The position numbers and the translations under genes were made by a program. 38,875 nt of DNA, taken from contig DAOLKI010000001.1 of the NCBI GenBank assembly GCA_035331665.1, positions 1-38,875 on the forward strand, read 5' to 3'. The notes beneath the pieces are model-generated. The model made no database searches and was not told where the DNA came from. It saw nothing but the letters and a program-made list of their open reading frames with translations. Numbering within the stretch: position 1 is the first letter of the stretch; each line of letters starts with the position of its first letter. Origin of the DNA: Rhodocyclaceae bacterium. Lineage in GTDB: Bacteria > Pseudomonadota > Gammaproteobacteria > Burkholderiales > Rhodocyclaceae. Below, piece after piece: positions 378 to 17,798 of this stretch.

Positions 378-379
378 TG

Positions 380-2096: not shown

Positions 2097-3100
2097 CAGA
2101 TGACCTTCGCCCGGAACAGGTCGTGCATGTTCAGGGCGCCGACGACCGCGCCCCGGGCATCCAGCACGAGAAGCTGGTTGATGCGCAGACGGTCCATCAT
2201 TTCCACGGCTTCAACGGCCAGGCGATCCGGACCTATCGAATGCGGATGGGTGGTCATGACCTTCCGCACGGGGATTTCCCGCAGGTCGCCGAGGCGCTCC
2301 AGGCTGCGGCGCAGGTCGCCGTCGGTGAAGATGCCGGCTAGCCGGCCTTCGGAGTCCTGGACGATGGTCATGCCAAGGCCCCCACGGGACATTTCCAGCA
2401 GCGCATGCGGCACCGGCGTTCCTTCGCCGACCCGGGGCAGGCCGTCGCCGTCGCGCATCACGTCGCGCACGTGGGTCAGCAGCTTGCGGCCCAGGGCGCC
2501 ACCGGGATGGGTGCGGGCGAAGTCGTCCGCGGAGAAGCCTCTGGCGTCGAGCAGGGCGACGGCCAGCGCGTCGCCGAGGGCCAGCGCGGCGGTGGTGCTG
2601 GCCGTGGGCGCCAAATTCAGGGGGCAGGCCTCCTCGCGGACACGGGCGTCGAGATGGATGTCGGCCTCGCCTGCCAACGAGGAGTCGGCGTTGCCGGTGA
2701 TGGCGATCAGGTGTCCCCCCTGCCGCTTGACCAGGGGAACGATGGTGAGCAATTCGTCGTTCTCGCCGGAGTTGGAAATGGCGATCATCACGTCGTCGCG
2801 CGTGATCATGCCCAGGTCCCCGTGGACCGCTTCCGCCGCATGCACGAAATAGGCCGGCGTGCCGGTGCTGGCGAGCGTGGCCGCGATCTTGCGCGCAATG
2901 TGGCCGGACTTGCCGATGCCGCTCACCACGACGCGGCCGTGGCATTCGAGGATCGTCCGAACCGCGTGGTCGAATTCGGCGCCGAGGCGGCTGGCCAGGG
3001 CGAGCACGGCATCGGCTTCGATGTGCAGGACGCGGCGCGCCATCGCCAGGGCGGGCGATTCCACTATGTCATCGGGGGTAAGGGGACGGACTTGGGACAT
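2096..3100 (-). CDS. kdsD: arabinose-5-phosphate isomerase KdsD (SIS plus tandem CBS domains)
   Basis: 334-aa ORF. SIS-domain motifs are present (VVVSGIGKSGHIARKIAATLASTGTPA, ISNSGE), and the C-terminus has CBS repeats (VRDVM..., VVGALNMHDLFRA). Confidence 0.9.
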   Translation of the reverse strand: MSQVRPLTPDDIVESPALAMARRVLHIEADAVLALASRLGAEFDHAVRTILECHGRVVVSGIGKSGHIARKIAATLASTGTPAYFVHAAEAVHGDLGMITRDDVMIAISNSGENDELLTIVPLVKRQGGHLIAITGNADSSLAGEADIHLDARVREEACPLNLAPTASTTAALALGDALAVALLDARGFSADDFARTHPGGALGRKLLTHVRDVMRDGDGLPRVGEGTPVPHALLEMSRGGLGMTIVQDSEGRLAGIFTDGDLRRSLERLGDLREIPVRKVMTTHPHSIGPDRLAVEAVEMMDRLRINQLLVLDARGAVVGALNMHDLFRAKVI

Positions 3101-3169
3101 GGTCCGGGCTGCCGTTATGATTGGCGACGATTATATCAACCCCCCCGGACCGGCCGGTCTCCCATCGCC

Positions 3170-5140
3170 ATGTCATCCCTGCAGCTCGTATTGCTCCTGC
3201 TGGCGGCGGCCGTGCTGGTCGTGGTGGCCTTCCGGACCCTCGGCCTGCCGCCCATCATCGGCTACCTGCTGGTGGGCTGCGCGATCGGACCCCATGCGCT
3301 CGGGTGGCTGCCCGACGAGGAATCGACCCGCCGGCTGGCGGAGTTCGGCGTGGTCTTCCTGATGTTTTCCATCGGGCTCGAGTTCTCGTTGCCGCGGCTT
3401 TACAGCATGAAGCGCATCGTCTTCGGCCTCGGCCTCGCCCAGGTGGCGACGACCCTCCTGGTCGGCATGCTCGCCGCGTGGGCGGCAGGTGCGTCGATGC
3501 GGCAGGGAATCGCGCTCGGCGGCGTGGTCGCCATGTCCTCCACCGCAGTGCTCTCCCGCCTGCTTGCCGAACGCCTCGAACTGGAGTCGGCCCACGGGCG
3601 CGAGGTGATCGGGGTGCTGCTGTTCCAGGACCTGGCCGTGGTGCCCCTGATGATCCTTCTGCCTGCCCTGACCCAGGCGCCGGAAGCCTTTGCCGCGACG
3701 CTGCTCCCCGAACTGGCCAAGGCCGTCGCCGTGCTCGCCGTGGTGATCTTCTTCGGCCAGCGCCTGATGGGCCTGTGGTTCTTCATCGTGGCGCGGCGCA
3801 AGTCGGCGGAATTGTTCGTCCTGAACGTGCTGCTGATCACCCTCGGGCTCGCCTACGTCACGGAACAGGCCGGGCTTTCGCTCGCCCTGGGGGCATTCAC
3901 GGCCGGCATGCTGATTTCCGAGACCGAGTACCGCTACCAGGTCGAGGAAGACATAAAGCCCTTCCGGGACGTGCTCCTCGGGCTGTTCTTCGTGACGGTC
4001 GGCATGCTGCTCGATCTGCCCCTGGTGATCGAGAACCTCGCCTGGGTGGCGGCGGCCCTGGTCCTGCTTCTCTCGGTCAAGCTGGCGCTCGTGGCCGGCC
4101 TGTCGCGCCTCTTTGGCGCGGCGCCGGGCACGTCCTTGCGGGCGGGCCTGTGGCTATGCGCCGGGGGCGAATTCGGCTTCGTCCTGCTGGACCGGGCGGG
4201 CGAGCTGGGACTGATGAAGGGACATCTGATGCAGGTGACGCTGGCGGCGCTGGTCCTGTCCCTGATCCTCGCGCCATTGATCGTCCATTTCTCGGACCGC
4301 ATCGTGATGCGCTTCGTCTCCTCCGAATGGCTGTTGCGGTCCATGCAGCTGACCCAGTTGGCCGCCCGATCGCTGACGGCCGAAAGGCATGCCATCGTCT
4401 GCGGCTACGGCCGCACGGGCCAGCACCTGGCGCGTTTCCTCGAACAGGAGGGCATCGCGACCGTGGCCCTGGATTCCGACCCCGAACGCGTCAGCGAGGC
4501 CGCCGCCGCGGGCGAGCCCGTCAGTTACGGGGATTGCGCGCGCCGCGAAACCCTGGTGACGGCGGGTGTCGTGCGGGCCCACGTGCTGATCGTCACCTTT
4601 TCCGACAGCCACGCGGTGCAACGGGTGCTTCACCACGTGCGGGACCTGCGCCCGGACCTTCCGGTGGTGGTGCGGGCCCACGACGACGCGGACATGGAAC
4701 GATTCGCGGCGCTCGGCGCCACCGAGGTGGTCCCGGAGGCCCTCGAGTCGAGCGTCATGCTGGCCACGCACGCCCTGGCCCTGCTGGGGATTCCGATGCA
4801 CCGGGTGATCAAGCGTCTGCGCGAGATGCGCGAGCAGCACTACGTGCTGCTGAGAGGCTTCTTCCATGGCGCCACGGACGCGGCCGACCATCTGGAAGAG
4901 GCCGATCAGCCGCGGTTGCATGCGGTTCTGGTGACGGACGGGGCCAAGGGTGCCGGCCGCCCGGCCGACGAACTCGGCCTGGTGGAAATGGGCGTCCAGG
5001 TGTCGGCGGTGCGCCGCCGCGGGGCAACCCGCCAACGCGTCGATCTTCGCGAGCCCCTGGCCGAGGGGGACGTGGTGGTGCTGTTGGGAACGCCGAAAGC
5101 CCTGAAGGCGGCGGAGGAAAGAATCCTGCGCGGAAAATGA
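3170..5140 (+). CDS. monovalent cation:proton antiporter-2 (CPA2) family protein, KefB/YbaL-like, with TrkA-N and TrkA-C domains
   Basis: In-frame ATG at 3170 (MSSLQLVLLLLAAAVLVV...) inside the long ORF 2405-5140. The part upstream of 3170 overlaps kdsD antisense and is Arg/Gly-rich. There are multiple TM helices, a Rossmann motif (VCGYGRTGQHLARFL) and a C-terminal TrkA-C-like segment. Confidence 0.85.
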   Translation: MSSLQLVLLLLAAAVLVVVAFRTLGLPPIIGYLLVGCAIGPHALGWLPDEESTRRLAEFGVVFLMFSIGLEFSLPRLYSMKRIVFGLGLAQVATTLLVGMLAAWAAGASMRQGIALGGVVAMSSTAVLSRLLAERLELESAHGREVIGVLLFQDLAVVPLMILLPALTQAPEAFAATLLPELAKAVAVLAVVIFFGQRLMGLWFFIVARRKSAELFVLNVLLITLGLAYVTEQAGLSLALGAFTAGMLISETEYRYQVEEDIKPFRDVLLGLFFVTVGMLLDLPLVIENLAWVAAALVLLLSVKLALVAGLSRLFGAAPGTSLRAGLWLCAGGEFGFVLLDRAGELGLMKGHLMQVTLAALVLSLILAPLIVHFSDRIVMRFVSSEWLLRSMQLTQLAARSLTAERHAIVCGYGRTGQHLARFLEQEGIATVALDSDPERVSEAAAAGEPVSYGDCARRETLVTAGVVRAHVLIVTFSDSHAVQRVLHHVRDLRPDLPVVVRAHDDADMERFAALGATEVVPEALESSVMLATHALALLGIPMHRVIKRLREMREQHYVLLRGFFHGATDAADHLEEADQPRLHAVLVTDGAKGAGRPADELGLVEMGVQVSAVRRRGATRQRVDLREPLAEGDVVVLLGTPKALKAAEERILRGK

Positions 5141-5183: not shown

Positions 5184-5846
5184 TCAGTAGGCGGCGCAGA
5201 CGGTATACAGGTTCGCGTCGTCCGCCGGGGCGAGGGCGACGGCGTCTGCCGCCGTCGCGCAGGTGTTTTGGCAAATGACCCGCAAGGTGCCGGTCGCCGT
5301 ATTTCCATCATCGATGGTGGTATCGATCTGTCGGGCGAAGCGGCCCTGGATGTTGGTGGAACAGACATAGAAGTTGGCGATGTAAGGCGTCGTCGGTGCA
5401 GTCAGGACCGGGTCGCCCGTAATGCCGATGGCTCCGCCGTCGGCATTGCGCGGGACGTAATCGGCGGCCGCCGTATTCGTGGTACCCGTCGCAAGGCCGG
5501 CCAAGCGCACGTGCTGCCAGAACAGATAGGTTTCGTCGGTTGCAGTGGCGGAGTTCCAGGTGCCATTCAGTCGGGCGTTGCCGACGGACCCGGCGGGCGT
5601 CGTGGCAACCGTGGCGCCGGCGCCCACGTGATTGACCACGGCGGTGTCGTCACCCGGAAGGGCGCGAAACTTGTCCTGGTAGGCATAGACGAAGGTCGAG
5701 ATGTTGCGGAAGTCGCCCGCCATGTTCTTGACCTTGGCGCTGTTGATGAGCTCCTGGCCCTTCAGCACGCCGCCGAGCAGCAGGCCGATGATGACCAGCA
5801 CGATGGCGATTTCGACAAGGGTGAATCCGGATTGCTTGCGGTACAT
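5184..5846 (-). CDS. type IV pilin-like major subunit (prepilin N-terminal cleavage/methylation domain)
   Basis: The internal ATG at 5846 gives MYRKQSG/FTLVEIAIVLVIIGLLLGG. This is a short basic leader, then Gly-Phe, Glu at +5 and a hydrophobic helix. A strong SD (AAGGAGAAGG, 5851-5860) lies 4 nt upstream. The C-terminal region has four Cys. The ORF-track start at 5993 would add 49 non-pilin residues and overrun the promoter. Confidence 0.85.
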   Translation of the reverse strand: MYRKQSGFTLVEIAIVLVIIGLLLGGVLKGQELINSAKVKNMAGDFRNISTFVYAYQDKFRALPGDDTAVVNHVGAGATVATTPAGSVGNARLNGTWNSATATDETYLFWQHVRLAGLATGTTNTAAADYVPRNADGGAIGITGDPVLTAPTTPYIANFYVCSTNIQGRFARQIDTTIDDGNTATGTLRVICQNTCATAADAVALAPADDANLYTVCAAY

Positions 5847-5899
5847 TTTTCCTTCTCCTTGGCGACAGGGTGTCGTCCTTCTGGCGTTAATATGGAATC

Positions 5900-5985: not shown

Positions 5986-7728
5986 ATGTCCAAAATTGGA
6001 CATATCCCTAAAGTGATAGGTGCGCGCTCCTCGTCGGAATTGCTGGACTGGATCGCCCAGCGGCGCCGCTGGTTGCTCTTCGCGTTATTGTTCCTTTTCT
6101 ACCTCACCCTGCTGGAAGGCGTGGCCGACCCGGTCAGTCGCACCCTGGCGGTGGTGCAGGTGGGCCTGTTCTTCTTGTGGCAACCCTTCATCCAGGCCGA
6201 CCGGCACATTGCTCCCCTCAGCGTTGCGGTACTCGCGGCCCTGGTCGTCTACGGTGCGGCCCATCTGAGCTGGGGAACTCTGATCCTCTGGGCCCTGCTC
6301 ATCGCCGGGATCATCGGGGGCAAGGTCTTCCACCCCGGCAGCCGATGGAATCGCCTGTTCCACCTTCTGGCCCTCGCCTTCCTCGTCGCCGCCATGCTTG
6401 CGGTTCTCGTGCCACGCGTGCTCCCCGGTGGGGTCCAGGTCGGCGGCAGCCTGGACCAGGTCGTGATCGCCGGGTTGCCCATCCTGATGCTGATCATGGG
6501 ATTGCTCCCCGTGGAGCCGGAGGCTCCCGGTTACCGGAACGCCGTCGATCTTGCCTACAGCGCCTTCATTTTTCTCATCCTTGCGGTCCTGATGCTGGGT
6601 AGCGTTGCCGGGATGGCGATCGGTCGGCTGGATTACCTGAGTTCGCTCGTGGTGGCAACGCTGGTGACGGCCGGCGGCCTGATCCTCCTGACATGGGCCT
6701 GGAATCCCCGGGGCGGTTTCGCCGGATTCGGGACGATCCTTTCCCGGCATCTGCTCTCGATGGGCACGCCTTTCGAGGAATGGGTGGAGTCCCTGTCGGC
6801 GGCTGTGCAAGGGGACGACGATCCGGGCCTGTTCGTCGCCCGGGCCTGTGCCGAATTGCCGCGCCGCATACCCTGGGTCTCCGGCGGGGAGTGGCGCACC
6901 GAGGACGGCGTGGGGAGTTTCGGCACGGGAACAGACCAACGCAGCGAGTACCGGCACGAGCGGCTCACGGTCGTCGTCTTTACGCGCCACGCGTCGACGC
7001 CGGTGATGGCCTGGCATTTGAACGTGGTCACCCGACTGATCGCCGAGTTCTACAATGCCCGGGTCCGGGCGGCCGAGCTGAGGCGCTTGACGTACCTTCA
7101 GGCCATCTACGAGACGGGGTCGCGATTGACCCACGACGTCAAGAACCTGCTCCAGTCCTTGAACACGCTGTGCGCCGCGGCGACCGGCGACGATGCATCC
7201 TCTCCGCGTTTCCAGGAGATGGTCCGGCGGCAGTTGCCGGTCATTGCCGCGCGCCTTCAGCAGACCCTGGAGAAGTTGAAGACGCCCGAATTGGCAGAGT
7301 CGCCCGCCATGGACGCCGACGACTGGTGGCATGACTTGGCGGGTCGCTTCGCCGGCGAAAGTGTCGAGTTCGCGCCATGGGACGGCGTACCGGGCCTGCG
7401 GGTGCCGGCAGCCCTGTTCAACGCCGCGGCGGAAAACCTGCTGCGCAATGCACTGGAAAAACGGCAACGGGAACCCGGCATCGCAATCCGCGTCTGCCTG
7501 GAGACGGATGCGGAAAAGGCCGCGCTGTCGGTGACGGATTGCGGCAGCGCAATCGGCGATGACCTGGCCAGGGAGATAGGTCGGGGACCGGTCGAGTCGG
7601 CAGGCGGCTTCGGCATCGGGCTCTACCAGATTGCCCGTTACGCCGCGGCCGGCGGCTATCGGTTGTACCTGGCCGAGAACCGCCCGGGCCGGGTGCGCTT
7701 CCGCCTTGCCCCGGATTCCCGCGCCTGA
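5986..7728 (+). CDS. polytopic membrane sensor histidine kinase
   Basis: 580-aa ORF. The first 260 aa or so are a run of hydrophobic helices. Kinase motifs follow: H-box RLTHDVKNLLQSL, N-box ENLLRNALEKR, G1 VTDCGSAIG and G2 GGFGIGLYQ. It is divergent from the sigma-54-dependent pilin gene. Confidence 0.8.
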   Translation: MSKIGHIPKVIGARSSSELLDWIAQRRRWLLFALLFLFYLTLLEGVADPVSRTLAVVQVGLFFLWQPFIQADRHIAPLSVAVLAALVVYGAAHLSWGTLILWALLIAGIIGGKVFHPGSRWNRLFHLLALAFLVAAMLAVLVPRVLPGGVQVGGSLDQVVIAGLPILMLIMGLLPVEPEAPGYRNAVDLAYSAFIFLILAVLMLGSVAGMAIGRLDYLSSLVVATLVTAGGLILLTWAWNPRGGFAGFGTILSRHLLSMGTPFEEWVESLSAAVQGDDDPGLFVARACAELPRRIPWVSGGEWRTEDGVGSFGTGTDQRSEYRHERLTVVVFTRHASTPVMAWHLNVVTRLIAEFYNARVRAAELRRLTYLQAIYETGSRLTHDVKNLLQSLNTLCAAATGDDASSPRFQEMVRRQLPVIAARLQQTLEKLKTPELAESPAMDADDWWHDLAGRFAGESVEFAPWDGVPGLRVPAALFNAAAENLLRNALEKRQREPGIAIRVCLETDAEKAALSVTDCGSAIGDDLAREIGRGPVESAGGFGIGLYQIARYAAAGGYRLYLAENRPGRVRFRLAPDSRA

Positions 7729-7732: not shown

Positions 7733-9046
7733 TCAGGCGACCTGTGCCTCGCGCACGGCCTTGCGGCCGATCAGGCGGTAAACGGTCATGTTTCCCTTGC
7801 CCTTCAGGTAGATCGTCTGCGGCTCGTGGAACTCGAAATTCTCGTGCAGGCGGCGGTAGGTGGTGGTGTCGCACTGGACCATCCCGGGTACGCCCTCGGT
7901 CGTGATGCGGCTGGCGATATTCACCGTATCGCCCCACAGGTCGTAGATGAACTTCTTCTTGCCGACCACTCCGGCCACCACCGGCCCGGTACCTATCCCG
8001 ATGCGCACCTCCAGGTGCGAGGTATTGACCGCGAAGTCCCGGTGCAACAGGTCGCGCATGGCCACCGCCATGTCCGCGATGGCCGCGGAGTAGTCCCGCG
8101 GCCCGTCGTTCAATCCGCCGGCCACCATGTACGCGTCGCCGATGGTCTTGATCTTCTCGAGCCCGTAGCGTTCTGCCAGTTCGTCCCAGGCCGAGAAGAT
8201 CCGGTTGAGCATCGAAAACACCTCCCCGGGAGACATGCCGGCGGCCACCTGGGTGAAATTCACGATATCGGCGAACATGACCGTCACATCGGCGAAGCCG
8301 TCGGCGATGGTCTCGTCCGAGTTCTTCAATCTTTCCGCCACGGGACCGGGCAGGATGTTCAGGAGCAGACGCTCGGACCGGTCCTGCTCGATCTGCAGCA
8401 GATGGTGGGCTTCCCGCAGTTTCTCCTCGGTCTTCTGCTTCTCCTGTATGGAAAATCGCAGCAGCATGTAGATGATGGTCGCCACGGCGACGAAGTTGAG
8501 CGCGAAGAACACCACGCTCGTTCGCACGGGCACGGCCGTCGCCTGAAGGCTTGCGACGTCGGCGAGCACGAAGTCGAAGGCGCCCGAGAGCAGGGTCAGG
8601 AAGGCCCACGCGAAGAACCAGGCCACCGACTCCCGTACGCCGAAGAAAAGGATGGCACCGACGGGCGCCAGGAGGCCCCAGAGGATGATGCCGCTCGCCG
8701 TGATGAAGTTGCCGATGCTCCACTGCACGGCAAAGGGCGCGAACAGGAACAACGCCAGTTGCGTGACCCGGAAGAAGTCGAAATTGCGGCTCGCCACGTA
8801 GAGGACGAGGTTGGCGGTCAATGCCAGCTGGAACAGGAAGGGATAGGTGGCCGACAGCTGCGGTCCGAGCATCCAGTACAGGGCCAGCCACAGCATCGAC
8901 GCCGCACTGACGAGGCCGGTGGCGAAGACCAGGAGGGACTTGTTGAGGCGCTGCTCCTCGCTGTCGCCCGGCTCCACCCCCGCATTGCGAAGTCGGGCCA
9001 GGAATCCGTCTCTTCTTCTGGCGGCGAGGGATTGGGGCGCGGACAT
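7733..9046 (-). CDS. membrane-anchored class III adenylate cyclase
   Basis: About six TM helices, then a CYCc domain with VTVMFADIVNFT, KIKTIGDAYM and IYDLWGDTVNIASR. The Lys in KTIGD and the Asp in YDLWG are the adenine-specifying pair. The start is taken at ATG 9046 (MSAPQSL...); ATG 9163 is an alternative. Confidence 0.85.
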   Translation of the reverse strand: MSAPQSLAARRRDGFLARLRNAGVEPGDSEEQRLNKSLLVFATGLVSAASMLWLALYWMLGPQLSATYPFLFQLALTANLVLYVASRNFDFFRVTQLALFLFAPFAVQWSIGNFITASGIILWGLLAPVGAILFFGVRESVAWFFAWAFLTLLSGAFDFVLADVASLQATAVPVRTSVVFFALNFVAVATIIYMLLRFSIQEKQKTEEKLREAHHLLQIEQDRSERLLLNILPGPVAERLKNSDETIADGFADVTVMFADIVNFTQVAAGMSPGEVFSMLNRIFSAWDELAERYGLEKIKTIGDAYMVAGGLNDGPRDYSAAIADMAVAMRDLLHRDFAVNTSHLEVRIGIGTGPVVAGVVGKKKFIYDLWGDTVNIASRITTEGVPGMVQCDTTTYRRLHENFEFHEPQTIYLKGKGNMTVYRLIGRKAVREAQVA

Positions 9047-9202
9047 GATGTGGGCGTTGCGTTTCAGCCGATTAGTCTCGCAGGAAGCCCAATGCCGGTC
9101 AAGGCGCCCATCCGCCCCGAACGTGGCCAAGTCCCTTTCCCGGAGCATGCCGTCATCGCGCATGTGGTAGCGGGTGGCATGCGTCGCCGGGATGCGACGC
9201 CG

Positions 9203-10030
9203 TCACGGCAGTTGGCCGGCGGCGATCATCCGGTTGTACAGGATATTCGGCGACAGCCAGGCAACGATGTCGTCGAACTCGCCGTCGGTGCTCCCCGCGG
9301 CCGTCGGCGGATGCGAGACGAAGGCCGGATCCGCCGCGGGCGCCGCGGCGTTCGGGTTCGGGTTGTGCTGCTCGCCCGTACCTGTCCCGCCGCCTCCGCC
9401 TGTGCGCCCGTTGGGCCCCAGCGAGTAGATCACCGCCACGGCGTTGTCGGTCAGTTTCCCTGCCGTGGTGCAGGTCGCATGGCCGGCGGCAGTCGCCAGA
9501 TTGGTGGTCCCGGGATTCTGCACGGCCGATCCCGATGCGCAGACGCTCAGGAAGGTATTGGAGGCGAGGAACGAGGCCAGGCCGTCGAGTTTTGCGTTCT
9601 TCATCCCGTTGGCGGTGGTGAAGGCATTGGCCACCGCATTCACCGTGCCCGGATACACCGCATAGCGGATGGGGCGGTTCCACGCATCCGTGGCGAAGCC
9701 CTGCGCGTTTGTCGGGGTGACGCCAAGGGTGACCGCGGGCACGAAACCGGAGTAGGGCGCAACACAGGCGCCGCCGCCGGACGGATCCTCCACGCCGGCG
9801 CTCGCTGCCGTCGCCGGGCAGGGGAGGCGGCCGTGGGAAGCGGCGAAGCCGATGACCGCCTCGCGGATGTCGGCCACCGTCTTCTCCGTCTCGCCCAGGG
9901 CCCTCAGGTCCGACTGGGTGGAGATCGGGATCAGCATTCCGCCGAGGAGCAGCGCGACGATCAACAGCACGACGGCCATTTCCGTCAGCGTGAATCCGCC
10001 GCATGCGGCGCCGCCCGTGTCTTCCCTCAT
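9203..10030 (-). CDS. minor pilin-like protein (prepilin cleavage/methylation motif)
   Basis: 275 aa starting MREDTGGAACGG/FTLTEMAVVLLIVALLLGG, with Glu at +5. It also has an LPCP...C module and a Gly-rich stretch. Its start overlaps the stop of the upstream gene (ATGA at 10027-10030). Confidence 0.8.
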   Translation of the reverse strand: MREDTGGAACGGFTLTEMAVVLLIVALLLGGMLIPISTQSDLRALGETEKTVADIREAVIGFAASHGRLPCPATAASAGVEDPSGGGACVAPYSGFVPAVTLGVTPTNAQGFATDAWNRPIRYAVYPGTVNAVANAFTTANGMKNAKLDGLASFLASNTFLSVCASGSAVQNPGTTNLATAAGHATCTTAGKLTDNAVAVIYSLGPNGRTGGGGGTGTGEQHNPNPNAAAPAADPAFVSHPPTAAGSTDGEFDDIVAWLSPNILYNRMIAAGQLP

Positions 10031-12282
10031 CGCGTCTTCAGTTTGAAGTCGGAAACCGTGTACCGTTGGCCTACCGTGGACTGGCCCACCGTGAAGCCGA
10101 CCCAGAAATTGCGGAACACCTGCACCGTGGCCCGCAGGTCCTGGAGGGTGACCTGGTCGCGGAGGTAGATGGTGGGCGGCAGCAGGATGCTACCCGACTC
10201 GAGCCAATTCGCCCAGGACGTACCCGAGAAATCGACCGCCACGTTGTCGATGCCGGGGAAGTCGGTCGCCTCCGCGCTCTTCACCACCCAGACCTTGACG
10301 TCGTAGGTGCCCGTGCCGCGCCCGCCGACGCCGGACGGCGGAGTATAGGCGCGGACGATGTCCATGCGCACCAGGAAGGTCCGGTCGCTTGCGGTCGGGC
10401 AGACCGTGGAACTGTTCAGACAGGTCAGGGTGGCCCGCTTCGTCGAGAGCGGACTGGTCAAGGTCGGGAAATCCGGACCGAAACTGCCCTCGTTGGTGGA
10501 TGATGGCGACGCGGCGTGGTGCACATTGTCATCATCGACCGTCGTGAAGCTGTTCCAGTAATGCAGCGCCACGTGGTTCGCGTTCGTGTCGGACCTGTCC
10601 GCGTTGTTCTGCGTGTCGAACTCGAGGCCGATCTTGGAATAGACGACGGGGCTGGAATACGGGATGCCGAGGGCATTGGCGTTGGTGCCGGCATATCCGA
10701 GGAACCGGCCACCGTTGCCGCACATGGCCGTGGTGGCATTGCTGCTGCTGTCCGCCAGGGTCAGGGTGAATCCCTGGCCCGGGGTGTCGTTCTCGATCCG
10801 GAACTTGAAGTAGGCGCGGATGCCGGTACCGAACGGGACCGTCGTGCCGTACCAGGTGCAGCCGAACAACTGGCCGGTGACCAGCGCATATCCCGTATCG
10901 GCATCCGTGTGGCCCGTGGTGGCATTGTCATTGCCGAGCACGAGGGTTTCGCCGCTGCGGTTGACCAGGGACTGGGTGCCGCCGACGCCGACGATGCTTA
11001 GTGGCGCAGTGACATCGGTGAAATCGCCCAGATCGCGCTGGAAGGACACTTCCGGCGGATTGAGGCAATACATGAGGTCCTGGGAGGCGGCGAGCCGAGG
11101 ATTGGTGATCGTCAAGGTGGACGGCCCGGCGAAATCCGTTCCGGTACCGGTGAAACTGGTCAGATTCGCACCTTCGAGAAAACTTCCCGGCGAGGCGGCT
11201 TCGCCAGCGGTGCGCGGGCCGCCGGCGACTCGTTCGCCGGCGAAGAGCAGCACACCCGTGCATGCGCCGCCGTTGAGACACTTGGTCTTCTGGTTGGTGC
11301 ACACGGAATAGCGATATTGGTTGTACCAATAGGGATAGTATTGGGGTGACGTGGCGCTGTTCGGGAAGGTTCCCGGAGCGACGGTTGCCGCAATCGTCCC
11401 GGAAAGCTTCGTCCCCGCGGCGGCGGCGACGGCCGGGGCAGGCAGGACCGCGCGTCCCTCGAAATCGAGCTTGATGTCGTTGCCGAGGGACGACAGGTGA
11501 GTCGCGAAATCCGCCCGGGCCTTCAGGGCCGTGAAGATTTCCTTTGGCGAGATGGCGAGCACCCGGTCATTATTCGTGCCGCTCGACGACTCGCCTTCCG
11601 TCACGTTGACGGTGCCGAGGGCGACTCCGCCGGCCCCAAACGGGGCCGACTCCAGGTAAGCGGCGAAATTCGCGGCCGTGTCGGCACCGCAGGACCGCGT
11701 GGCCGTCTCGGCAGACCGGGACTGGCCCACCAACGGGCTCCCCGGAGCGAACACGACAGCCGCGCCACCGCCCTCGCCATCCCCCGGGGTCGATCGGATC
11801 GTCCCGGTGGCCGTGGCCAGATGGAAATTTCCTTGCATATCCCAGGTGAAAGGCGCTGCCGCCGCGGGCGAGTTCTTGAAGTTCGCTCCGACGCCGTACC
11901 AGAGACAGGCGCCGGTTTCGTCCCGGAGCGGTTCCAGGCCGAGGGTCTTGTAGGGGAGATATCCGACGACGGTCTGGCCGGACGTTCCGCAGGGAGGGTC
12001 CGCGATTCCGTCGCCGTCCGTGTCCGGGCAGGGCAGGTAGCCGAACATGCTTGTGGGATGGGCGTCTCGGTAGGTGGCCGCGTAGCCGAGCAACGCCTGT
12101 TTCGCCGTGGCCAAGGCCTTGAGGCCGACTTCCTGCCGCTGTGGGGCGGCCGGCAGCGACATCTGACGAACCAGAAGGAAGAGAACGCCCGCCCCGAGAA
12201 TCGCCAACAAGGCGAGAAGGGCGTATCCCCCCTCCGCCGATGACCGGCCGGGCTGGGAATGCCCCGTGGTCCTGTCCGCCAT
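10027..12282 (-). CDS. large non-canonical pilin-like protein with a C-terminal L-type lectin/ConA-like domain (MshQ/GspK-like candidate tip protein)
   Basis: 751 aa. The N-terminal hydrophobic helix (GGYALLALLAILGAGVLFLL) has no Glu at +5. An LPCP module is shared with the next gene. The C-terminal 341 aa carry lectin-like strand motifs (see the domain feature). A GAGG SD lies upstream. Confidence 0.7.
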   Translation of the reverse strand: MADRTTGHSQPGRSSAEGGYALLALLAILGAGVLFLLVRQMSLPAAPQRQEVGLKALATAKQALLGYAATYRDAHPTSMFGYLPCPDTDGDGIADPPCGTSGQTVVGYLPYKTLGLEPLRDETGACLWYGVGANFKNSPAAAAPFTWDMQGNFHLATATGTIRSTPGDGEGGGAAVVFAPGSPLVGQSRSAETATRSCGADTAANFAAYLESAPFGAGGVALGTVNVTEGESSSGTNNDRVLAISPKEIFTALKARADFATHLSSLGNDIKLDFEGRAVLPAPAVAAAAGTKLSGTIAATVAPGTFPNSATSPQYYPYWYNQYRYSVCTNQKTKCLNGGACTGVLLFAGERVAGGPRTAGEAASPGSFLEGANLTSFTGTGTDFAGPSTLTITNPRLAASQDLMYCLNPPEVSFQRDLGDFTDVTAPLSIVGVGGTQSLVNRSGETLVLGNDNATTGHTDADTGYALVTGQLFGCTWYGTTVPFGTGIRAYFKFRIENDTPGQGFTLTLADSSSNATTAMCGNGGRFLGYAGTNANALGIPYSSPVVYSKIGLEFDTQNNADRSDTNANHVALHYWNSFTTVDDDNVHHAASPSSTNEGSFGPDFPTLTSPLSTKRATLTCLNSSTVCPTASDRTFLVRMDIVRAYTPPSGVGGRGTGTYDVKVWVVKSAEATDFPGIDNVAVDFSGTSWANWLESGSILLPPTIYLRDQVTLQDLRATVQVFRNFWVGFTVGQSTVGQRYTVSDFKLKTR
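10030..11052 (-). other. lectin-like (legume/ConA-type beta-sandwich) domain of the 751-aa protein
   Basis: The ordered motifs are FKFRIENDTPGQGFTLTLAD, GGRFLGYAG, KIGLEFDTQNNADRSDTNANHVALHYWNS and FWVGFTVGQSTVGQRYTVSDFKL. They parallel the legume lectin pattern F.F.I...ADGlaFfl / G..LG / vAVEFDT..N..D...HvGIdvNS / V.vGFSa.TG....h.i.sW.F. Confidence 0.55.
11989..12030 (-). other. Cys-bracketed DxDxDG calcium-binding-type loop in the 751-aa protein
   Basis: Hand translation gives C-P-D-T-D-G-D-G-I-A-D-P-P-C (aa 85-98). DTDGDGIAD fits the DxDxDGxxD Ca-loop pattern. Confidence 0.4.
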
Positions 12283-12290: not shown

Positions 12291-12725
12291 TCAGTCGGCG
12301 CGGCGCACCGATTTCCTGACGACGCCGCCGCCCAGGCCGTCGTTCTTCTCGCGCGTTGCCCGGTTGATGGACTCGCCGACCTTGAGGCGCGCCGGAACCT
12401 CGTCGCTCGCAGTGAGGACGGCCTCGGCGGGGTCGCCGGGACGCACTCCGACGGTCACGCCGGTGCCGACATCGCGGTGGTACTGGGGCATGCCACTGAC
12501 CCAGACCGTGTCGTGGCCGCTGGATCGCCGGACGGTGCCGTCCAGGCTCATCACGGCGCCCTGCAGCGTCTGGGTCTGTTGAACGTTGGCCTGACGCTGA
12601 CGCTCCAGGGACGCCCGCCGTTCCGGGGAAAAGAACAGCCTCCCAAGGGGTTCGGCCGCTTCGGCAATGGGCGGCACGCCGAGAGCCAGAGCGACGAGGA
12701 CCGGCAAGAAGCGAACCTTGCTCAT
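12291..12725 (-). CDS. small secreted/periplasmic protein (MshK/PilP/GspC-like position)
   Basis: The internal ATG at 12725 gives MSKVRFLPVLVALALGVPPIAEA/AEP, a signal peptide. This ATG overlaps the upstream stop (ATGA at 12722-12725). I recognise no family motif. The ORF-track N-terminal extension is Arg-rich and overlaps the upstream gene. Confidence 0.5.
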   Translation of the reverse strand: MSKVRFLPVLVALALGVPPIAEAAEPLGRLFFSPERRASLERQRQANVQQTQTLQGAVMSLDGTVRRSSGHDTVWVSGMPQYHRDVGTGVTVGVRPGDPAEAVLTASDEVPARLKVGESINRATREKNDGLGGGVVRKSVRRAD

Positions 12726-13336
12726 TTGCGCTCCCGGATGGTGATCCACTCGATGATGCAATCCGCCTTCAACTGCGCCGCGTCGGGGCGTTCGGCGCCT
12801 CCCGTTGCGGAGATACGATCGACGGTGCAACTGCGCACGTGCAGGAGGGCCTTGGATCTTGCGCCAAGATCGCGGACGAGCCCGAGCAGGTCCTCCTCGT
12901 GGAGCAGGCGCATCTGCAGGTGCATCGTGCTTCCCATGAATTCGTACCCGCCCGCGGCGGCACCGTCGGGCAGCAGCACCGGATCGACGGGTTTCTGGGG
13001 CAGGATCTCGTATTCGATGTCGAACAGCTTGCGGTTGGCCTTGATCCGGGCGATCTCTTCCACCCAGGCGAGGCGTTCTTCCCGACCGATCAATCCGCGC
13101 CGGGTGATGTCGAGATAGCGCGCGATCTTTTCCCGGATCTCCTGTTCCTCGTCGGTGGCCCTGGAGAGCTTGCGTTGAATCTCCTGCCGCTGGCCGGCCA
13201 CTGCCGCCTCTTCGCGCAGGACGGCCTGTACCTGGACCCGGGCGAGCCAGGCCAGCAGCGCGCCCGCCAGGACGAGGCCGGCGCAGGATGCCACGCTCCA
13301 GCGCAGTCGCAAGAGGTCCGCGAACAGGGCCTGCAT
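12722..13336 (-). CDS. bitopic assembly-platform protein, GspM/PilO/MshJ-like
   Basis: 204 aa with one N-terminal TM (VASCAGLVLAGALLAWLA), a coiled coil (REEAAVAGQRQEIQRKLSRATDEEQEIREKIARY) and then a globular part. There are ATGA overlaps at both ends. The assignment rests on architecture and position only. Confidence 0.5.
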   Translation of the reverse strand: MQALFADLLRLRWSVASCAGLVLAGALLAWLARVQVQAVLREEAAVAGQRQEIQRKLSRATDEEQEIREKIARYLDITRRGLIGREERLAWVEEIARIKANRKLFDIEYEILPQKPVDPVLLPDGAAAGGYEFMGSTMHLQMRLLHEEDLLGLVRDLGARSKALLHVRSCTVDRISATGGAERPDAAQLKADCIIEWITIRERK

Positions 13337-14880
13337 CAGAGTTTCACCGCAATGCGCAGGGTGAAGCGGGGACGTTCCGCCACCGCGCGCCCCTCGCTGC
13401 CGCTGCGCAGGGACTTCCCGGATTCGACCTCGAAAGGCATGCTGAGCACGTCCACTTTCAATGCGGTGTCCTTGCGCAAGAGGTCGGCCAGGTTTTCGAC
13501 AGCGGTCAGCTGCGCCCGCCGGTCGGACGCCATGGCCGACGGAAGGCTCGCCGCCAGATCAAGGATTGCGTAGGCGGCGGTTCCGGATGGATGGGGTGCC
13601 TCGGTGCGCGGCGACGCCGTCGAGGATTTCTCTCCCTCGGGATTGTCCGTCACCGACCACGCGAGGCGGTCGAGCTCGATTCTCGGATCTTTCAGCAAGG
13701 CGCTGCCGACCGCGGCGAGGAGGCCGTCGGGTGCGGGGCTGCGCCGGGTGACCTCGTCGAACTTGCGGACCAGGAGCCGCAGGTCGTCGTTGCCCAACGG
13801 CACCTTCGGCAGTCCGCCCAGTATGCCGGCGTAGCGTTGCTGGTCCGTTGCGATCTGGGCCTTCAGGGCGTCGACCCGCGACTGCAGGTTCATCTGCTCG
13901 ACGAGCACCTTGCCGGAATAGAGCAATGCGCCCGCGAACAGCACCGTACCCGTCGCGAGTATGGCCGAGCGCAGCCGCCAGAGCTTGAAGAATCGCCTTT
14001 CGTCGCCATGGGCGAACTGGGCCTTCGGCACCTGGCGCATGAGCAGGTGCATGAAGAGGAGTTCGGCATGGGAGTCGGCCGGCAACGACCGCAGGCGCCA
14101 CCGCCGGGCCTCGTGCGCAAGGTCGGCGACCTCGTAGGCGAGATCCTCCGTATCCCGGCAGCGATTGCGCAGGGATGCGGCCTGGCCCGGATGGGCGAGG
14201 ACGATGGTGGGCAGCCGGGTACCGCGGACGACGAGACGCTGGGCGACAAGGTACTGGTGAATCTTGGCCGATTCCAGCGCCGCCGAGTTTGCCATTTCCT
14301 CGACGGTATCCACGGCCAGCACGGTGAGGCGGGAGAACCGCAGGCGACCGTTCTCGAAAAAGGTCTGCCGCAGGCCACCCCGCGTGAAACTGATCAGGAG
14401 GAACTGGCGGCGGCCTCCCGCGAGAGCGGTGGCGAGCGACTCCGCCACCAGCGGCACCGAGAAGACCCCCGCGACCCGGCATTCCGCGGCCCGCAGGGCG
14501 ACCAGCCAGGGTTCGAAATGCTGCGGCCGGGTGAGCGCGGTCAAGAGGATGCGCTCGTCCCTTCGGCCTTCGGGGAGCCTGCCCTGGGAGATCGCGACCG
14601 AAAGCTGGGATCCGTAGAAATACTGACCGAGCTTGCGGGTGAGCAGCGCCGTGCGGTCGGCGCCCCGGACGTAGGGAATGTCCTCGAGCTGGAATCCTTC
14701 CTCCGACACGTCCGCCAGCAGGTGGAACAGGCCGTTGCGCCGCTTGTGCAGGTAGGCCGCGAACCGTTCGACGCCTGCGCCGTCGGTGCCGAATTGTCCC
14801 TCGGGTTCGAGCAGGCCCTCGTGCCAGCGAAAGGCGTCGAGGCGCGAGCCGTCGAGGAAGAGCACGAAACGGGCGGGCAT
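13336..14880 (-). CDS. GspL/MshI-like (PilM-PilN fusion-like) assembly-platform protein
   Basis: 514 aa. There is a cytoplasmic domain of about 290 aa, one TM (AILATGTVLFAGALLYSG), a coiled coil (QSRVDALKAQIATDQQRY) and a periplasmic domain. It is translationally coupled to the GspF-like gene (ATGA at 14878-14882). The assignment rests on architecture and position. Confidence 0.5.
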   Translation of the reverse strand: MPARFVLFLDGSRLDAFRWHEGLLEPEGQFGTDGAGVERFAAYLHKRRNGLFHLLADVSEEGFQLEDIPYVRGADRTALLTRKLGQYFYGSQLSVAISQGRLPEGRRDERILLTALTRPQHFEPWLVALRAAECRVAGVFSVPLVAESLATALAGGRRQFLLISFTRGGLRQTFFENGRLRFSRLTVLAVDTVEEMANSAALESAKIHQYLVAQRLVVRGTRLPTIVLAHPGQAASLRNRCRDTEDLAYEVADLAHEARRWRLRSLPADSHAELLFMHLLMRQVPKAQFAHGDERRFFKLWRLRSAILATGTVLFAGALLYSGKVLVEQMNLQSRVDALKAQIATDQQRYAGILGGLPKVPLGNDDLRLLVRKFDEVTRRSPAPDGLLAAVGSALLKDPRIELDRLAWSVTDNPEGEKSSTASPRTEAPHPSGTAAYAILDLAASLPSAMASDRRAQLTAVENLADLLRKDTALKVDVLSMPFEVESGKSLRSGSEGRAVAERPRFTLRIAVKL

Positions 14881-16082
14881 CAGATCTTCAGCTTGGTGAT
14901 CACGTCGTAGATGGGGCCCAGCACCGAGAGCATGACCCAGCCCAGGATGAGGCCGACGATCAGCGTCATGGTCGGTTCGATCATGGCCTGGACCCGCTCG
15001 ATGGATTCCCGCACGTCCCGGTTGTAGAAATAGCCGACATTGACCAGGGCGGTGTCCAAGGCGCCGGTGTTCTCCCCGACCCGCAGCATGCGCACGACCA
15101 GTGGCGGGAACAGCCCGGCATTCTGGAACGCGACGGTGATGTTTTGTCCTTCCGCAATCATTTCGCCGATGCGCTGCAACGCCTCCTTGACGGCGACATT
15201 TCCCACCACGTCCTCCGTGGCGCGCAGGGATTCGATGATCGAGATGCCGGAACCGTAGAGCATGGCGAAGACGCTTGCAAAGCGGGACAGGATGATCTTG
15301 CGCAGGATCTCACCGAGCCACGGAATCTCCAGCTTCAGCGCGTCGAAGCGGCGGCGGGCGCCCGGATGGGTGCGCACCGCGACCAGCAACGTCACCACGG
15401 CGAGGACCGGGATTCCGAGCACCAGGTACCAGTAATCGACGAACACGTCGGAGACGGCGATCAGAAGCCGCGTCTGGATCGGGAGTTCCTGCCCCATGTT
15501 TCGGATGAACGCCGCCATCTTGGGGACGAGATACGTCATCAGGAACAGGGTCACGGCGATGACGATGGTGCCCAGGAAGGCCGGGTAGGTCAGCAGCTTT
15601 TTCGTATGGGCGGCCAGTTCGTCCTGCCACTTCAGGGATTCCACGAGGTTGCGCAGGACGGCCGGCAGGTTGCCCGAGTCCTCGCCGGCGCGCACCAGAC
15701 TCACGAACACCCCGTCGAACACGCTGGGATGCTCCTGCATCGCCTGGGACAGGGTCTTGCCGCCCTCGATGCTCTCTATCATCCCGGCGATGACTTCCTT
15801 GAAACGCGGGTGCACGATGCTGTCTCGCAGATCCGTCAGGCCCTCGAGGATCGGCACGCCGGAGCGGGTGAGCTGTTCCAGGTGGAAGCAGAAGTTGATC
15901 AGTTCGCGACGGGATACCCGGACACCGGCCATCAAGCCCTGCTGGCGCACCGGACCCCCATTGACGAAGTCCAGTTCCATGCGCTTCAGGCGCATTTCCA
16001 GGTCCACGATGTTGATGGCATCCATGCGCCCGGCCACCAGGCGGCCGCCGGCATTCATCGCCTTGTAGAAGTACAGGGCCAT
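14880..16082 (-). CDS. mshG: type IV filament inner-membrane platform protein (GspF/PilC/MshG family)
   Basis: 400 aa with two GspF-type repeats (FCFHLEQLTRSGVPILEGL... and FASVFAMLYGSGISIIESL...) and three TM regions. It is adjacent to the assembly ATPase. Confidence 0.9.
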   Translation of the reverse strand: MALYFYKAMNAGGRLVAGRMDAINIVDLEMRLKRMELDFVNGGPVRQQGLMAGVRVSRRELINFCFHLEQLTRSGVPILEGLTDLRDSIVHPRFKEVIAGMIESIEGGKTLSQAMQEHPSVFDGVFVSLVRAGEDSGNLPAVLRNLVESLKWQDELAAHTKKLLTYPAFLGTIVIAVTLFLMTYLVPKMAAFIRNMGQELPIQTRLLIAVSDVFVDYWYLVLGIPVLAVVTLLVAVRTHPGARRRFDALKLEIPWLGEILRKIILSRFASVFAMLYGSGISIIESLRATEDVVGNVAVKEALQRIGEMIAEGQNITVAFQNAGLFPPLVVRMLRVGENTGALDTALVNVGYFYNRDVRESIERVQAMIEPTMTLIVGLILGWVMLSVLGPIYDVITKLKI

Positions 16083-16091: not shown

Positions 16092-17798
16092 TTACATCCG
16101 CTCCGTCAGGTCGACCACCCGCGCAACCTCCTCGAGGGCGGTGGACCCGTCCAGCACGCGGCGCAGCCCGTCCTCGGCGAGGGTCCGGAAACCCTTCTCG
16201 CGCGCCATGTTGCGGATTTCGCGCGCCGTGGCGCGGCGGGCGATGAGTTCGTCGAGGTCGGCATCCAGGCGCAGCAGTTCCATGATCGCGAGCCGGCCCC
16301 GGTAACCCTGGAAATCGCAGCGCTCGCAACCCATGGGCCGGTAAAGGACCGGTGCGGGACGGCGGGCGTCGAAGCCGAACAACCGCTGCTCGTGGGGCTC
16401 GGCCGGGTGGGGCTTGCGGCAATCCGGGCACAGCCGGCGGACCAGGCGCTGGGCGATCACGCCGATGATGTTCCCGGCCATGATGTCCGGCAGGATGCCG
16501 ATATCGAGCAGGCGCGGCACGGCGCCGATCGCCGAGTTGGTGTGCAGCGTCGAATACACCTGGTGGCCCGTCATCGCGGCCCGGAAGGCCATCTCCGCGG
16601 TATCGGCATCGCGTATCTCGCCGACCAGGATCACGTCCGGGTCCTGGCGCATCATCGACCGGATGCCGTTGGCGAAATCGAGCTTGGCCGCCTCGGCGAC
16701 CGACGTCTGGCGGATCATGGCCATCGGATATTCGACCGGGTCCTCGAGGGTCATGATGTTCTGACCCTCCTGGTTGATGTGGTTGAGGACCGAGTAGAGG
16801 GTCGTCGTCTTGCCGCTGCCCGTCGGCCCGGTGACGAGGATGATGCCTTCGGGGCGGGCGATCATCAGCTTCAGGTGGTCCAGCTGGTGGTCGTCGAGTC
16901 CCAGCCGGTCCAGGGGCACGATGCCTTTCTGCCGGTCGAGAATGCGCAGCACGATGTTCTCGCCGTGAATCGTCGGTTGGGCCGCGACGCGGAAATCCAC
17001 CTGCCGGCCACTGATGTTCAGCGAGATGCGTCCATCCTGGGGCGCCCGGGTCTCGGCGATGTTCATGCCGCTCATCACCTTGATGCGCACGGCCATGGCC
17101 GCCCAGTAGGACTTGTGCAGGGCGCGGATCTGGCGAAGGATCCCGTCGATCCGGTAGCGGATGCGCAGGAAACTGGCCTCCGGCTCGAAATGGATGTCCG
17201 ACGCTTCCCGCTTCACCGCGTCGGTGAGCAGGGCATCCACCAGCCGGACGACGGGCTGGCTGTACTCGTCCATCGATGCCGCGAGGCTCCGGTAGTCGAT
17301 CTCGCCGGTCTCGATCTCGTGCAGGATGCCGTCGATGGAGAGTTCGTGCCCGTAGTACTGGTCGATGGCCCGGGCGATTTCCGATTCGCCGGCGATCACC
17401 GTCTCGATCAGGAGGTCGTTCGGTGCGGCCGCCCGCAGCTTGTCGAGCGCGACGATGTCGTTCGGATCGGCGATCGCAATGGTCAGGCGATGCGTCTCCG
17501 CCAGGTAGTCGAGGGGCAGCAGCCGGTGCCGCTTCGCTGTCTCGCGCGGCACGAGGCGCAGCGCCGCCGGATCGACGATGGCATGGGCCAGATCGACGGA
17601 CCGCTGGCCCAGGGATTCGGAGAGGGCGTCGCGCAGCGTGGCCTCGGAGACGAAGCCGAGGGAGACCAGCAGCTTGCCCACCGGCTGGTTCGACTTCATC
17701 TGCTCCAGCAGCGCGATGCGCAACTGGTCTTCCGAGATGACCCCCTGGGCGATCAGGATCTGCCCGATGGGCCGGCGGTGGGGAGTGGGTGTATTCAT
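16092..17798 (-). CDS. mshE: type IV filament assembly ATPase (GspE/PilB family) with MshEN-type N-terminal domain
   Basis: 568 aa with Walker A GPTGSGKTTT, Asp box LEDPVEY, Walker B ILVGEIRD, His box GHQVYSTLHTN and a tetracysteine CPDC...CERC. The N-terminus has a tandem 24-residue MshEN-like motif (aa 9-62). Confidence 0.9.
   Translation of the reverse strand: MNTPTPHRRPIGQILIAQGVISEDQLRIALLEQMKSNQPVGKLLVSLGFVSEATLRDALSESLGQRSVDLAHAIVDPAALRLVPRETAKRHRLLPLDYLAETHRLTIAIADPNDIVALDKLRAAAPNDLLIETVIAGESEIARAIDQYYGHELSIDGILHEIETGEIDYRSLAASMDEYSQPVVRLVDALLTDAVKREASDIHFEPEASFLRIRYRIDGILRQIRALHKSYWAAMAVRIKVMSGMNIAETRAPQDGRISLNISGRQVDFRVAAQPTIHGENIVLRILDRQKGIVPLDRLGLDDHQLDHLKLMIARPEGIILVTGPTGSGKTTTLYSVLNHINQEGQNIMTLEDPVEYPMAMIRQTSVAEAAKLDFANGIRSMMRQDPDVILVGEIRDADTAEMAFRAAMTGHQVYSTLHTNSAIGAVPRLLDIGILPDIMAGNIIGVIAQRLVRRLCPDCRKPHPAEPHEQRLFGFDARRPAPVLYRPMGCERCDFQGYRGRLAIMELLRLDADLDELIARRATAREIRNMAREKGFRTLAEDGLRRVLDGSTALEEVARVVDLTERM

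Follow-up and report, generated by a model that had tools for sequence, protein, structure and literature searches.

In Streptococcus sanguinis, the pilus protein PilC joins a pilin, an immunoglobulin (Ig)-like domain and a concanavalin A (ConA)-like lectin; its ligands are sialylated glycans, the small pilin PilA stabilises it, and it has been modelled at the filament tip (PMC9934059). A database survey has counted more than 1,200 modular pilins, some of them with carbohydrate-binding modules (PMC8179133). Enterotoxigenic Escherichia coli CofB and Vibrio cholerae TcpB are single large minor pilins with extra beta-rich domains that start or cap the pilus (PMC8179133, PMC12918778). In the mannose-sensitive haemagglutinin (MSHA) system of V. 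cholerae, MshQ is a non-pilin of about 1200 amino acids (aa) that docks on the minor pilin MshP by beta-strand complementation (PMC12918778). We describe here a gene at 10027..12282 (minus strand) of a 38,875-nucleotide stretch from a Rhodocyclaceae bacterium (GCA_035331665.1, contig DAOLKI010000001.1, positions 1 to 38,875; the whole stretch is referred to as the window). Its 751-aa product is, by a modest preference on our part, best read as a modular minor pilin of an MSHA-like type IV filament that serves as a lectin-type, glycan-binding tip adhesin.

The protein resembles PilC in having an N-terminal pilin, an intervening domain and a C-terminal beta-sandwich of the lectin superfamily, in being encoded in a type IV pilus (T4P) locus, and in the logic of exchangeable modules. 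PilC, however, belongs to a monoderm T4P, has a canonical class III signal and a galectin-like lectin, and is partnered by PilA, whereas the 751-aa protein comes from a diderm host with an MSHA-like machine, lacks Glu5, carries an L-type lectin with a Mn/Ca site and is partnered by a paralogue of its own carrier. No sequence homology to PilC was found, PilC being absent from the PDB matches of the sequence and profile searches. A preliminary description of this DNA had presented the design as encoded differently from the known MSHA pilin-based adhesion and had taken sugar binding for granted; since lectin-bearing modular minor pilins at filament tips have been described, in PilC (PMC9934059) and in the survey (PMC8179133), that difference was overstated. 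It is already established that a module of the lectin superfamily can sit on a tip-located minor pilin. What appears to be new, judging from the sequences and the structure model, is an L-type lectin with an intact Mn/Ca site on a pilin, a host system that looks like a reduced MSHA-like machine of Betaproteobacteria, and a Glu5-less carrier that is probably paralogous to its partner pilin.

The 751-aa open reading frame (ORF), which begins with ATG and ends with a stop codon at 10027-10029, is a real gene. Its GC content at third codon positions (GC3) is 0.82, as in its neighbours, against 0.54-0.65 for the overlapping ORFs on the opposite strand; a GAGG ribosome-binding site lies 6 nt 5' of the ATG; its TGA stop codon and the start codon of the following pilin gene overlap as ATGA; and the sequences of at least 55 database homologues run parallel to it from the N-terminus onwards. 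All the strings that the preliminary description quoted from the protein are present (GGYALLALLAILGAGVLFLL, FKFRIENDTPGQGFTLTLAD, GGRFLGYAG, KIGLEFDTQNNADRSDTNANHVALHYWNS, FWVGFTVGQSTVGQRYTVSDFKL and C-P-DTDGDGIAD-P-P-C), and its numbering is correct, residues 85-98 corresponding to 11989-12030 and residue 411 beginning at 11052. The protein contains 12 cysteines, several of them invariant, which is compatible with an exported protein.

The C-terminal lectin that had been claimed for residues ~405-751 (10030..11070, minus strand) can be regarded as established, with an L-type (legume) lectin fold predicted both by structure modelling and by profile comparison. An AlphaFold2 (AF2) model of the whole protein built without templates (mean predicted local distance difference test, pLDDT, 85.9; predicted template-modelling score, pTM, 0.83) gave 87 Foldseek matches in the PDB at E<=0.001, and the best 50 of these 87 were all L-type lectins (best E 7e-9, probability 1.00; TM score to target 0.5-0.68 among these 50). 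The matches included legume lectins, ERGIC-53 and the legume-lectin domain of Methanocaldococcus jannaschii (7elv). When a profile of 18 C-terminal domains was compared with all PDB sequences, all 33 matches were legume lectins (33/33), led by Bowringia lectin 2fmd at E 6e-6. The Pfam model Lectin_legB (PF00139) matches residues 490-587 of the 751-aa protein at E 1.5e-4 and 21.8 bits, under its gathering score of 26.3; it reaches E 7.5e-8 in a homologue, and PF00139 stands in the precomputed Pfam annotation of another database entry of the family (P0024). When the lectin-only profile was run in a word-indexed database search, just one fragment came back, which gave no clue to where the lectin module came from. 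Two insertions in the domain, at about 590-620 and 690-700, are modelled with low confidence.

Within this domain the residues E-F-D-T-Q-N-N-A-D-R-S-D-T-N-A-N-H (554-570; 10573..10623, minus strand) correspond to the Mn2+/Ca2+ ligand loop of legume lectins. E554, D556, N560, D565 and H570 fall on the motif E-x-D-x3-N-x4-D-x4-H with spacing identical to that of the aligned legume lectins, and among 140 lectin-bearing relatives E554 is kept in 121, D556 in 121, D565 in 121 (with Glu in a further 9) and H570 in 133. The EFDT...N...D...H metal loop that had been proposed is therefore intact in its ligand motif, exact in its spacing and conserved, and the Mn/Ca ligand set is predicted to be complete. 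Besides the fold and this loop, the domain shares with legume and other L-type lectins (PF00139, PF18483; 2fmd, 5eyx, ERGIC-53, M. jannaschii 7elv) the G-x-L-G loop B and the strand motifs. It differs from legume lectins in having Gln503 for the sugar-binding Asp, two large insertions, the cysteine pair C475/C521 and a DDNxH motif, and in being fused to a pilin. The Cys pair is family-specific. So is the DDNxH motif, which in full reads W-x7-D-D-N-x-H (W576, D584, D585, N586, H588; residues 576-588, ~10519-10557), lies 3' of the metal loop and is absent from the aligned legume lectins; it may be an extra metal or ligand site.

At the other end of the protein, residues ~19-255 (11518..12228, minus strand) are identified by homology as a pilin module and a paralogue of the 275-aa pilin next to it, because the profile homology to this bona fide neighbour extends over its whole length. 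The 275-aa pilin (9203..10030, minus strand) has a canonical class III signal, G-FTLTE, detected by N_methyl and TIGR02532. A profile of the family's N-terminal part aligned by hhalign with a profile of six orthologues of this pilin at 99.3% probability and E 7e-21 over 212 columns, from Gly(-1) to the pilin's C-terminal motif DDxxxWISPxIL and hence along the entire pilin, with Gly19 of the 751-aa protein placed on Gly(-1) of the GFTLTE site. The same family profile matched the single 275-aa sequence at E 3.3e-9, and BLASTP between the two proteins gave 4e-6 over the alpha-1C and alpha-beta-loop region, where both share LIGYAA...LPCP...C...G-LP-x-TLG. As a HMMER profile, the family's N-terminal part also matches the downstream pilins in many other genomes, with E-values down to 5e-24. 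The pilin-like N-terminus noted earlier is consequently more than a hydrophobic helix, and homology to a bona fide pilin in its globular part comes from the alignment to the GFTLTE pilin orthologues.

The alpha-beta loop of this module contains C-P-D-T-D-G-D-G-I-A-D-P-P-C (residues 85-98; 11989..12030, minus strand), the DxDxDG-type pattern between two cysteines that had been pointed out before. It is conserved across 55 members: C85 in 55/55, D87 in 53/55, G92 in 55/55 and C98 in 53/55, with Asp or Asn at position 91 in 49/55 and at position 89 in 32/55; the loop is modelled with a pLDDT of 93-94. It resembles a DxDxDG calcium loop and may bind calcium. Between the pilin module and the lectin lies a middle domain (residues 256-404; 11071..11517, minus strand), which is part of the constant module, is present in all family members including those that lack a lectin, and is confidently modelled (pLDDT about 90); Foldseek against the PDB returned no match to it with E<1. 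Neither the middle domain nor the globular region of these pilins has a relative among the solved structures of the PDB.

Residues 1-42 (12157..12282, minus strand) consist of a leader of 18-19 residues ending in Gly19 and a hydrophobic helix, YALLALLAILGAGVLFLL, and appear to form a class III-like signal peptide without Phe+1 and Glu+5. The short basic leader, Gly(-1) and about 20 hydrophobic residues opening alpha-1, by which such signals are recognised (IPR012902), are all there, and the AF2 model has a long N-terminal helix (H19-42 plus H46-74). The Phe or Met at +1 and Glu at +5 of type IV pilins (IPR012902) are not: the 751-aa protein has Tyr at +1 and Ala at +5. The lack of Phe+1/Glu+5 that had been noted for this protein holds family-wide, Glu at +5 occurring in no member, while Gly19 (-1) is invariant (51/51) and Leu22 is kept in 50/51. 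The family N-terminus is a basic leader and an invariant Gly followed by [A/Y/F]-A-L-[L/I], with the consensus QRGxALL. One of the 55 homologues has an N_methyl match, at E 0.0014.

This N-terminus matches that of GspK in its motif. E. coli K-12 GspK, taken from the genome record, reads MNNEQRG-VALLIVLMLL (MNNEQRGVALLIVLMLL), a pattern equal to the family's QRG-xALL and likewise devoid of Glu5, and subunits of the GspK/PilX type are expected to be the first or tip subunit of their filaments. The likeness ends there. The label of GspK-type pseudopilin was rejected for the globular part: no T2SSK match was found in 18 or 55 members, and when the family was compared with E. coli GspK by hhalign, the alignment was confined to 20 signal-like N-terminal residues (11.7% probability). 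The globular and alpha-domains of GspK show no homology, GspI and GspJ partners are missing from the locus, and GspK has less than half the size of the 751-aa protein. Of the earlier idea of a GspK-type cap, the N-terminal motif thus survives; for the globular part the label was dropped because neither a GspK nor a pilin fold could be demonstrated by Foldseek for the N-terminal model.

The family is large and modular. In a pattern scan of species-representative genomes it was found in 60, belonging to Rhodocyclales, Sulfuricella and other Nitrosomonadales, Rhodoferax and a few metagenome-assembled genomes (MAGs) labelled Desulfobulbaceae; most are Betaproteobacteria. The lectin domain is present in 40/60 and the adjacent paralogous pilin in at least 37/60. 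In an exhaustive profile search the N-terminal module matched 1,470 clusters (50% identity) with E<=1e-30, a number that rises to 4,401 at the looser threshold of E<=1e-3, where the weaker tail probably includes paralogous pilins. The module has no Pfam or NCBIfam model, and named family members are called "hypothetical protein", apart from P0062, which the Joint Genome Institute (JGI) calls a PulG-type pseudopilin. Of 220 relatives retrieved with the N-terminal module nearly complete, 84 carry a lectin within a total length of up to 800 aa, 54 a lectin plus further domains, 12 another extension and 70 the carrier only, some of these last perhaps being truncated gene calls. Carrier-only forms of ~395-406 aa are nevertheless complete inside long contigs, as in Zoogloea sp. 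LCSB751 (L005, 10001-11188) and in L012 and L045. Propionivibrio dicarboxylicus DSM 5885 also has a carrier-only form, and Rhodocyclus gracilis DSM 110 has the lectin form. Sequence comparison thus shows the N-terminal ~400 residues as a constant carrier and the C-terminal module as exchangeable (lectin, lectin with beta-barrel, other, or none). Modular pilins and PilY1-type tip adhesins are characterised by just this combination of an unchanging carrier and a C-terminal module that can be swapped (PMC8179133), and the 751-aa protein, a pilin module fused to a functional module with no particular tie to T4P biology, fits the definition of a modular pilin (PMC8179133).

The longer forms have varied extensions. 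About 24 of the 55 homologues (P0014-P0047; for example L004 10001-13174) are 1050-1290 aa long, with extra domains C-terminal to the lectin; these match Pfam E1_FCCH, at best with E 2.4e-22, and four of the proteins also match the phage endosialidase beta-barrel End_beta_barrel, while P0037 has a bacterial antifreeze-protein repeat (AFP_2) instead. Besides Lectin_legB, the Pfam scan of the 55 homologues found only E1_FCCH, End_beta_barrel, Lectin_L-type_dom, AFP_2 and N_methyl; no T2SSK, PilX_N, MshQ or PilY1 domain appeared in the Pfam scans, and the 751-aa protein had no NCBIfam match. In MAGs labelled Deltaproteobacteria or Desulfobulbaceae (L010 and L021), beyond its otherwise betaproteobacterial range, the family occurs with the same upstream genes as elsewhere; such cases could be due to horizontal transfer or mis-binning.

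The association with a filament that had been proposed is borne out by synteny with assembly genes and pilins, both in the five compared loci L001-L005 and in the 60 species genomes, and this conserved order ties the gene, as far as gene context can tell, to an MSHA-like type IV filament machine. The minus strand of the window carries an operon-like array in the order sigma-54 response regulator (22604-24097), ExeA/MshM-like AAA ATPase (21032-22591), MshL-type secretin (19103-20974; TIGR02519, 260.1 bits against a cutoff of 250.2), tetratricopeptide repeat (TPR) protein (17838-19106), MshE-type ATPase with a cyclic di-GMP (c-di-GMP)-binding MshEN domain (16092-17798; T2SSE, PF05157 MshEN, NF053729), GspF/MshG-like platform protein (14880-16082; T2SSF), three conserved genes of no known family (12291..14880), the 751-aa gene, the 275-aa pilin and a cyclase, followed by a divergent kinase-like gene and a ~221-aa pilin. 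The TPR protein, the AAA ATPase and the response regulator were assigned with Pfam and NCBIfam. An MshL secretin together with an MshE ATPase bearing a c-di-GMP N-domain is what marks a machine as MSHA-type, and the locus has both. The same gene order is found in a Pseudomonadota MAG, Georgfuchsia toluolica, a Sterolibacterium MAG and a Sterolibacteriaceae MAG. Orthologues of the 275-aa pilin lie directly downstream of the big gene in L001-L005. The ~221-aa pilin (5184..5849, minus strand) begins MYRKQSG-FTLVE..., matches N_methyl at E 4.5e-8 and TIGR02532 above cutoff, and is the candidate major subunit; its homologues adjoin the pilin pair in L004 and L005.

As in V. cholerae, where MshD/O/P and MshQ go with an MshL secretin and an MshE ATPase, a large presumed tip adhesin is here encoded next to minor pilins. 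The structural set MshA-D, MshO, MshP and MshQ, however, has no recognisable counterpart: Pfam and NCBIfam gave no Msh-specific match on the two canonical pilins or the 751-aa protein, no MshQ or PilY1 family match on the latter, and no equivalents of MshB/C/D/O/P. The 751-aa protein also differs from MshQ in being itself a pilin paralogue. CofB and TcpB, in turn, belong to T4b systems, have other domain types and form a homotrimeric tip, and no sequence or fold match between them and the 751-aa protein was found. CofB and TcpB retain Glu5.

From these results a course of assembly can be proposed. A prepilin peptidase, encoded elsewhere, would cleave the 751-aa protein after Gly19. Without Glu5, the subunit would be the first to enter the filament, and its bulky middle and lectin domains would fit only at the tip; its tip-most placement is suggested by these two features together. 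With its translationally coupled 275-aa paralogue it would prime or cap a filament of the ~221-aa major pilin, the two-protein complex standing in for the MshD/O/P plus MshQ or the GspH-K sets. The metal-stabilised lectin would then bind a glycan, whether exopolysaccharide, cell-surface or particulate polysaccharide, giving tip-mediated adhesion, and filament extension would probably be gated by c-di-GMP through the MshE-type ATPase.

A number of results weigh against this proposal. The tip location, the peptidase cleavage and the glycan binding of the 751-aa protein are inferred. It has no N_methyl (Pfam) or TIGR02532 (NCBIfam) match, and scans of the window found neither a prepilin peptidase nor a retraction ATPase. 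A separate AF2 model of residues 1-400 (pLDDT 88.1) had no Foldseek match in the PDB with E<1, to a pilin or to any other fold, so that the alpha/beta-roll of solved pilins was not matched; the full-length family profile likewise retrieved lectins only, its first 400 residues drawing no match up to a limit of E<=10, and phmmer of the full protein against the PDB gave only a spurious match of 0.33 to a purine-biosynthesis enzyme. For the 275-aa pilin, too, the profile's matches to PDB pilins are limited to the N-terminal helix. In the lectin, the residue aligned with the invariant sugar-binding Asp of legume lectins (in the A-D-G motif, where a non-proline cis-peptide precedes it) is Gln503, and among the 140 relatives this position holds Glu in 34, Asn in 33, Arg in 19, Asp in 17, Gln in 10 and Tyr in 10. 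The intact sugar site implied by the preliminary description does not hold up on this count, and binding of a monosaccharide in the canonical manner is not assured. There is, finally, documented precedent for such a change: in the staphylococcal proteins Aap, SasG and Pls the L-type lectin fold binds metal but its sugar site is remodelled, and these proteins are thought to bind non-canonically (PMC9999234).

The replaced Asp and the staphylococcal precedent also speak for a first alternative, in which the architecture and the filament association are as described and the lectin fold is no carbohydrate receptor: it would bind a protein or another non-glycan ligand, or make pilus-pilus or cell-cell contacts, through a non-canonical site. 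Conserved motifs peculiar to the family that lie away from the classical site (W576, D584-D585-N586-x-H588 and the cysteines C475/C521) would suit such a role, and in the minor pilin CofB the lectin-type domain has a protein, CofJ, as its ligand. The Mn/Ca set, however, which shapes the sugar site in legume lectins, is strongly conserved in full; the Gly-rich loop B (G-x-L-G) and Asn/Asp at position 560 are retained; and 94/140 relatives keep Asp, Glu, Asn or Gln at position 503, all able to hydrogen-bond sugar hydroxyls. We therefore think this alternative unlikely, if worth keeping in view. The Gram-positive surface adhesins SraP and Aap/SasG/Pls project a legume-lectin fold with a metal site from the end of a stalk (PMC4047093, PMC9999234), much as is proposed for the 751-aa protein, but they are cell-wall-anchored stalk proteins and not pilus subunits.

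A second alternative would make the 751-aa protein a bitopic component of the inner membrane or a periplasmic part of the machine, held by an uncleaved N-terminal helix and binding peptidoglycan or periplasmic glycans with its lectin, rather than a filament subunit. The missing Glu5, the missing N_methyl match and the failure of Foldseek to find a pilin fold would all be expected of such a protein, and its gene directly follows three machine-associated genes of no known family. Homology over the whole length to a canonical pilin, including an aligned and invariant Gly(-1), argues against it, as does the Zoogloea gene, which travels with two pilin genes away from the machine genes; moreover, a C-terminal module that is freely exchanged or missing is typical of a displayed adhesin and not of a machine part. 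This makes the second alternative improbable. Least probable of all is a type II secretion-like pseudopilus with the 751-aa protein as a GspK-like cap whose lectin recognises a glycosylated substrate or the cell envelope. In its favour, the N-terminus is GspK-like, the best NCBIfam matches of both pilins are to GspG/GspH N-termini and the locus has no retraction ATPase; against it, the secretin is an MshL equivalog above cutoff, the ATPase has the MshE-type c-di-GMP domain, Pfam and NCBIfam detected no homologues of GspC, GspL, GspM, GspI or GspJ, the globular domain of GspK has no homologue here and the pilins, at 221-275 aa, are far larger than GspG.

With the 751-aa protein taken as a lectin-bearing tip pilin, a broader proposal is conceivable, to which we give a low if appreciable chance: that the locus represents a distinct, minimal subtype of MSHA-like type IV filament, mainly of Betaproteobacteria, in which the four-protein initiation complex (GspHIJK, PilVWX with PilY1, MshDOP with MshQ) is replaced by a Glu5-less modular pilin and one paralogue, and in which specificity is tuned by C-terminal swaps and by hypervariation at the sugar-contact position of the lectin. 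If this is so, in Accumulibacter, Zoogloea, Propionivibrio and Sulfuricella, which form flocs or granules, the pilus could couple c-di-GMP signalling to exopolysaccharide-mediated aggregation, and a two-protein tip would offer a simple system for studying the priming of type IV filaments and the exchange of adhesin modules.

A large family of "hypothetical proteins" in a conserved pilus locus thereby gains a concrete, if still candidate, function, and its hosts are Betaproteobacteria of environmental and industrial importance, among them formers of wastewater flocs and granules and sulfur oxidisers. It escaped annotation because it lacks the N_methyl motif; surveys that rely on this motif will undercount modular pilins, since the family was recognised only through its homology to the neighbouring pilin. 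A bacterial metal-dependent L-type scaffold in which a contact residue is naturally varied may also interest glycobiologists.

The three genes of no known family between the platform-protein gene and the 751-aa gene encode proteins of 514, 204 and ~144 aa, none of which has a Pfam, NCBIfam or PDB sequence match; their homologues precede the big gene in 51, 55 and 59 of the 60 genomes, respectively. Labels such as MshI/J/K-like for them rest on position only, because the 514-aa protein is without a PDB relative. The three are chained by start/stop overlaps at 12722-12725 and 13336, and base 14880 is common to the 514-aa and platform genes. The carrier-only gene of Zoogloea (395 aa) and its two pilin genes adjoin a GGDEF gene and a two-component system, away from the assembly machine.

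Other genes of the locus point to its regulation and surroundings. Between the two pilin genes lie a class III adenylate/guanylate cyclase with an N-terminal membrane domain (7733-9163, minus strand; Guanylate_cyc E 3.8e-53) and a divergent, membrane histidine-kinase-like gene (5986-7728, plus strand; weak HATPase_c match), and the same pair follows the pilin in L001 and L002, which suggests that cyclic-nucleotide signalling may be coupled to the pilus in addition to the c-di-GMP-binding MshE ATPase. The ExeA/MshM-like ATPase has TIGR03015 as its best NCBIfam match (207 bits) and the response regulator TIGR02915 (337 bits), both XrtA/PEP-CTERM families and both below their cutoffs, and the TPR protein (17838-19106) has a weak PrsT match; these matches hint that the pilus locus may be linked, in evolution or in regulation, to the PEP-CTERM/exopolysaccharide systems of floc-forming Betaproteobacteria. 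On one flank (1-5140) the window encodes LptA/LptC, a KpsF-like SIS-CBS protein and a Kef-type Na/H exchanger, conserved in L001, L002, L004 and L005; on the other (23852-38875) it contains the Mla operon (MlaF/E/C/A), an ABC-2 transporter, MurA and the his operon. These housekeeping flanks indicate a chromosomal rather than a mobile context.

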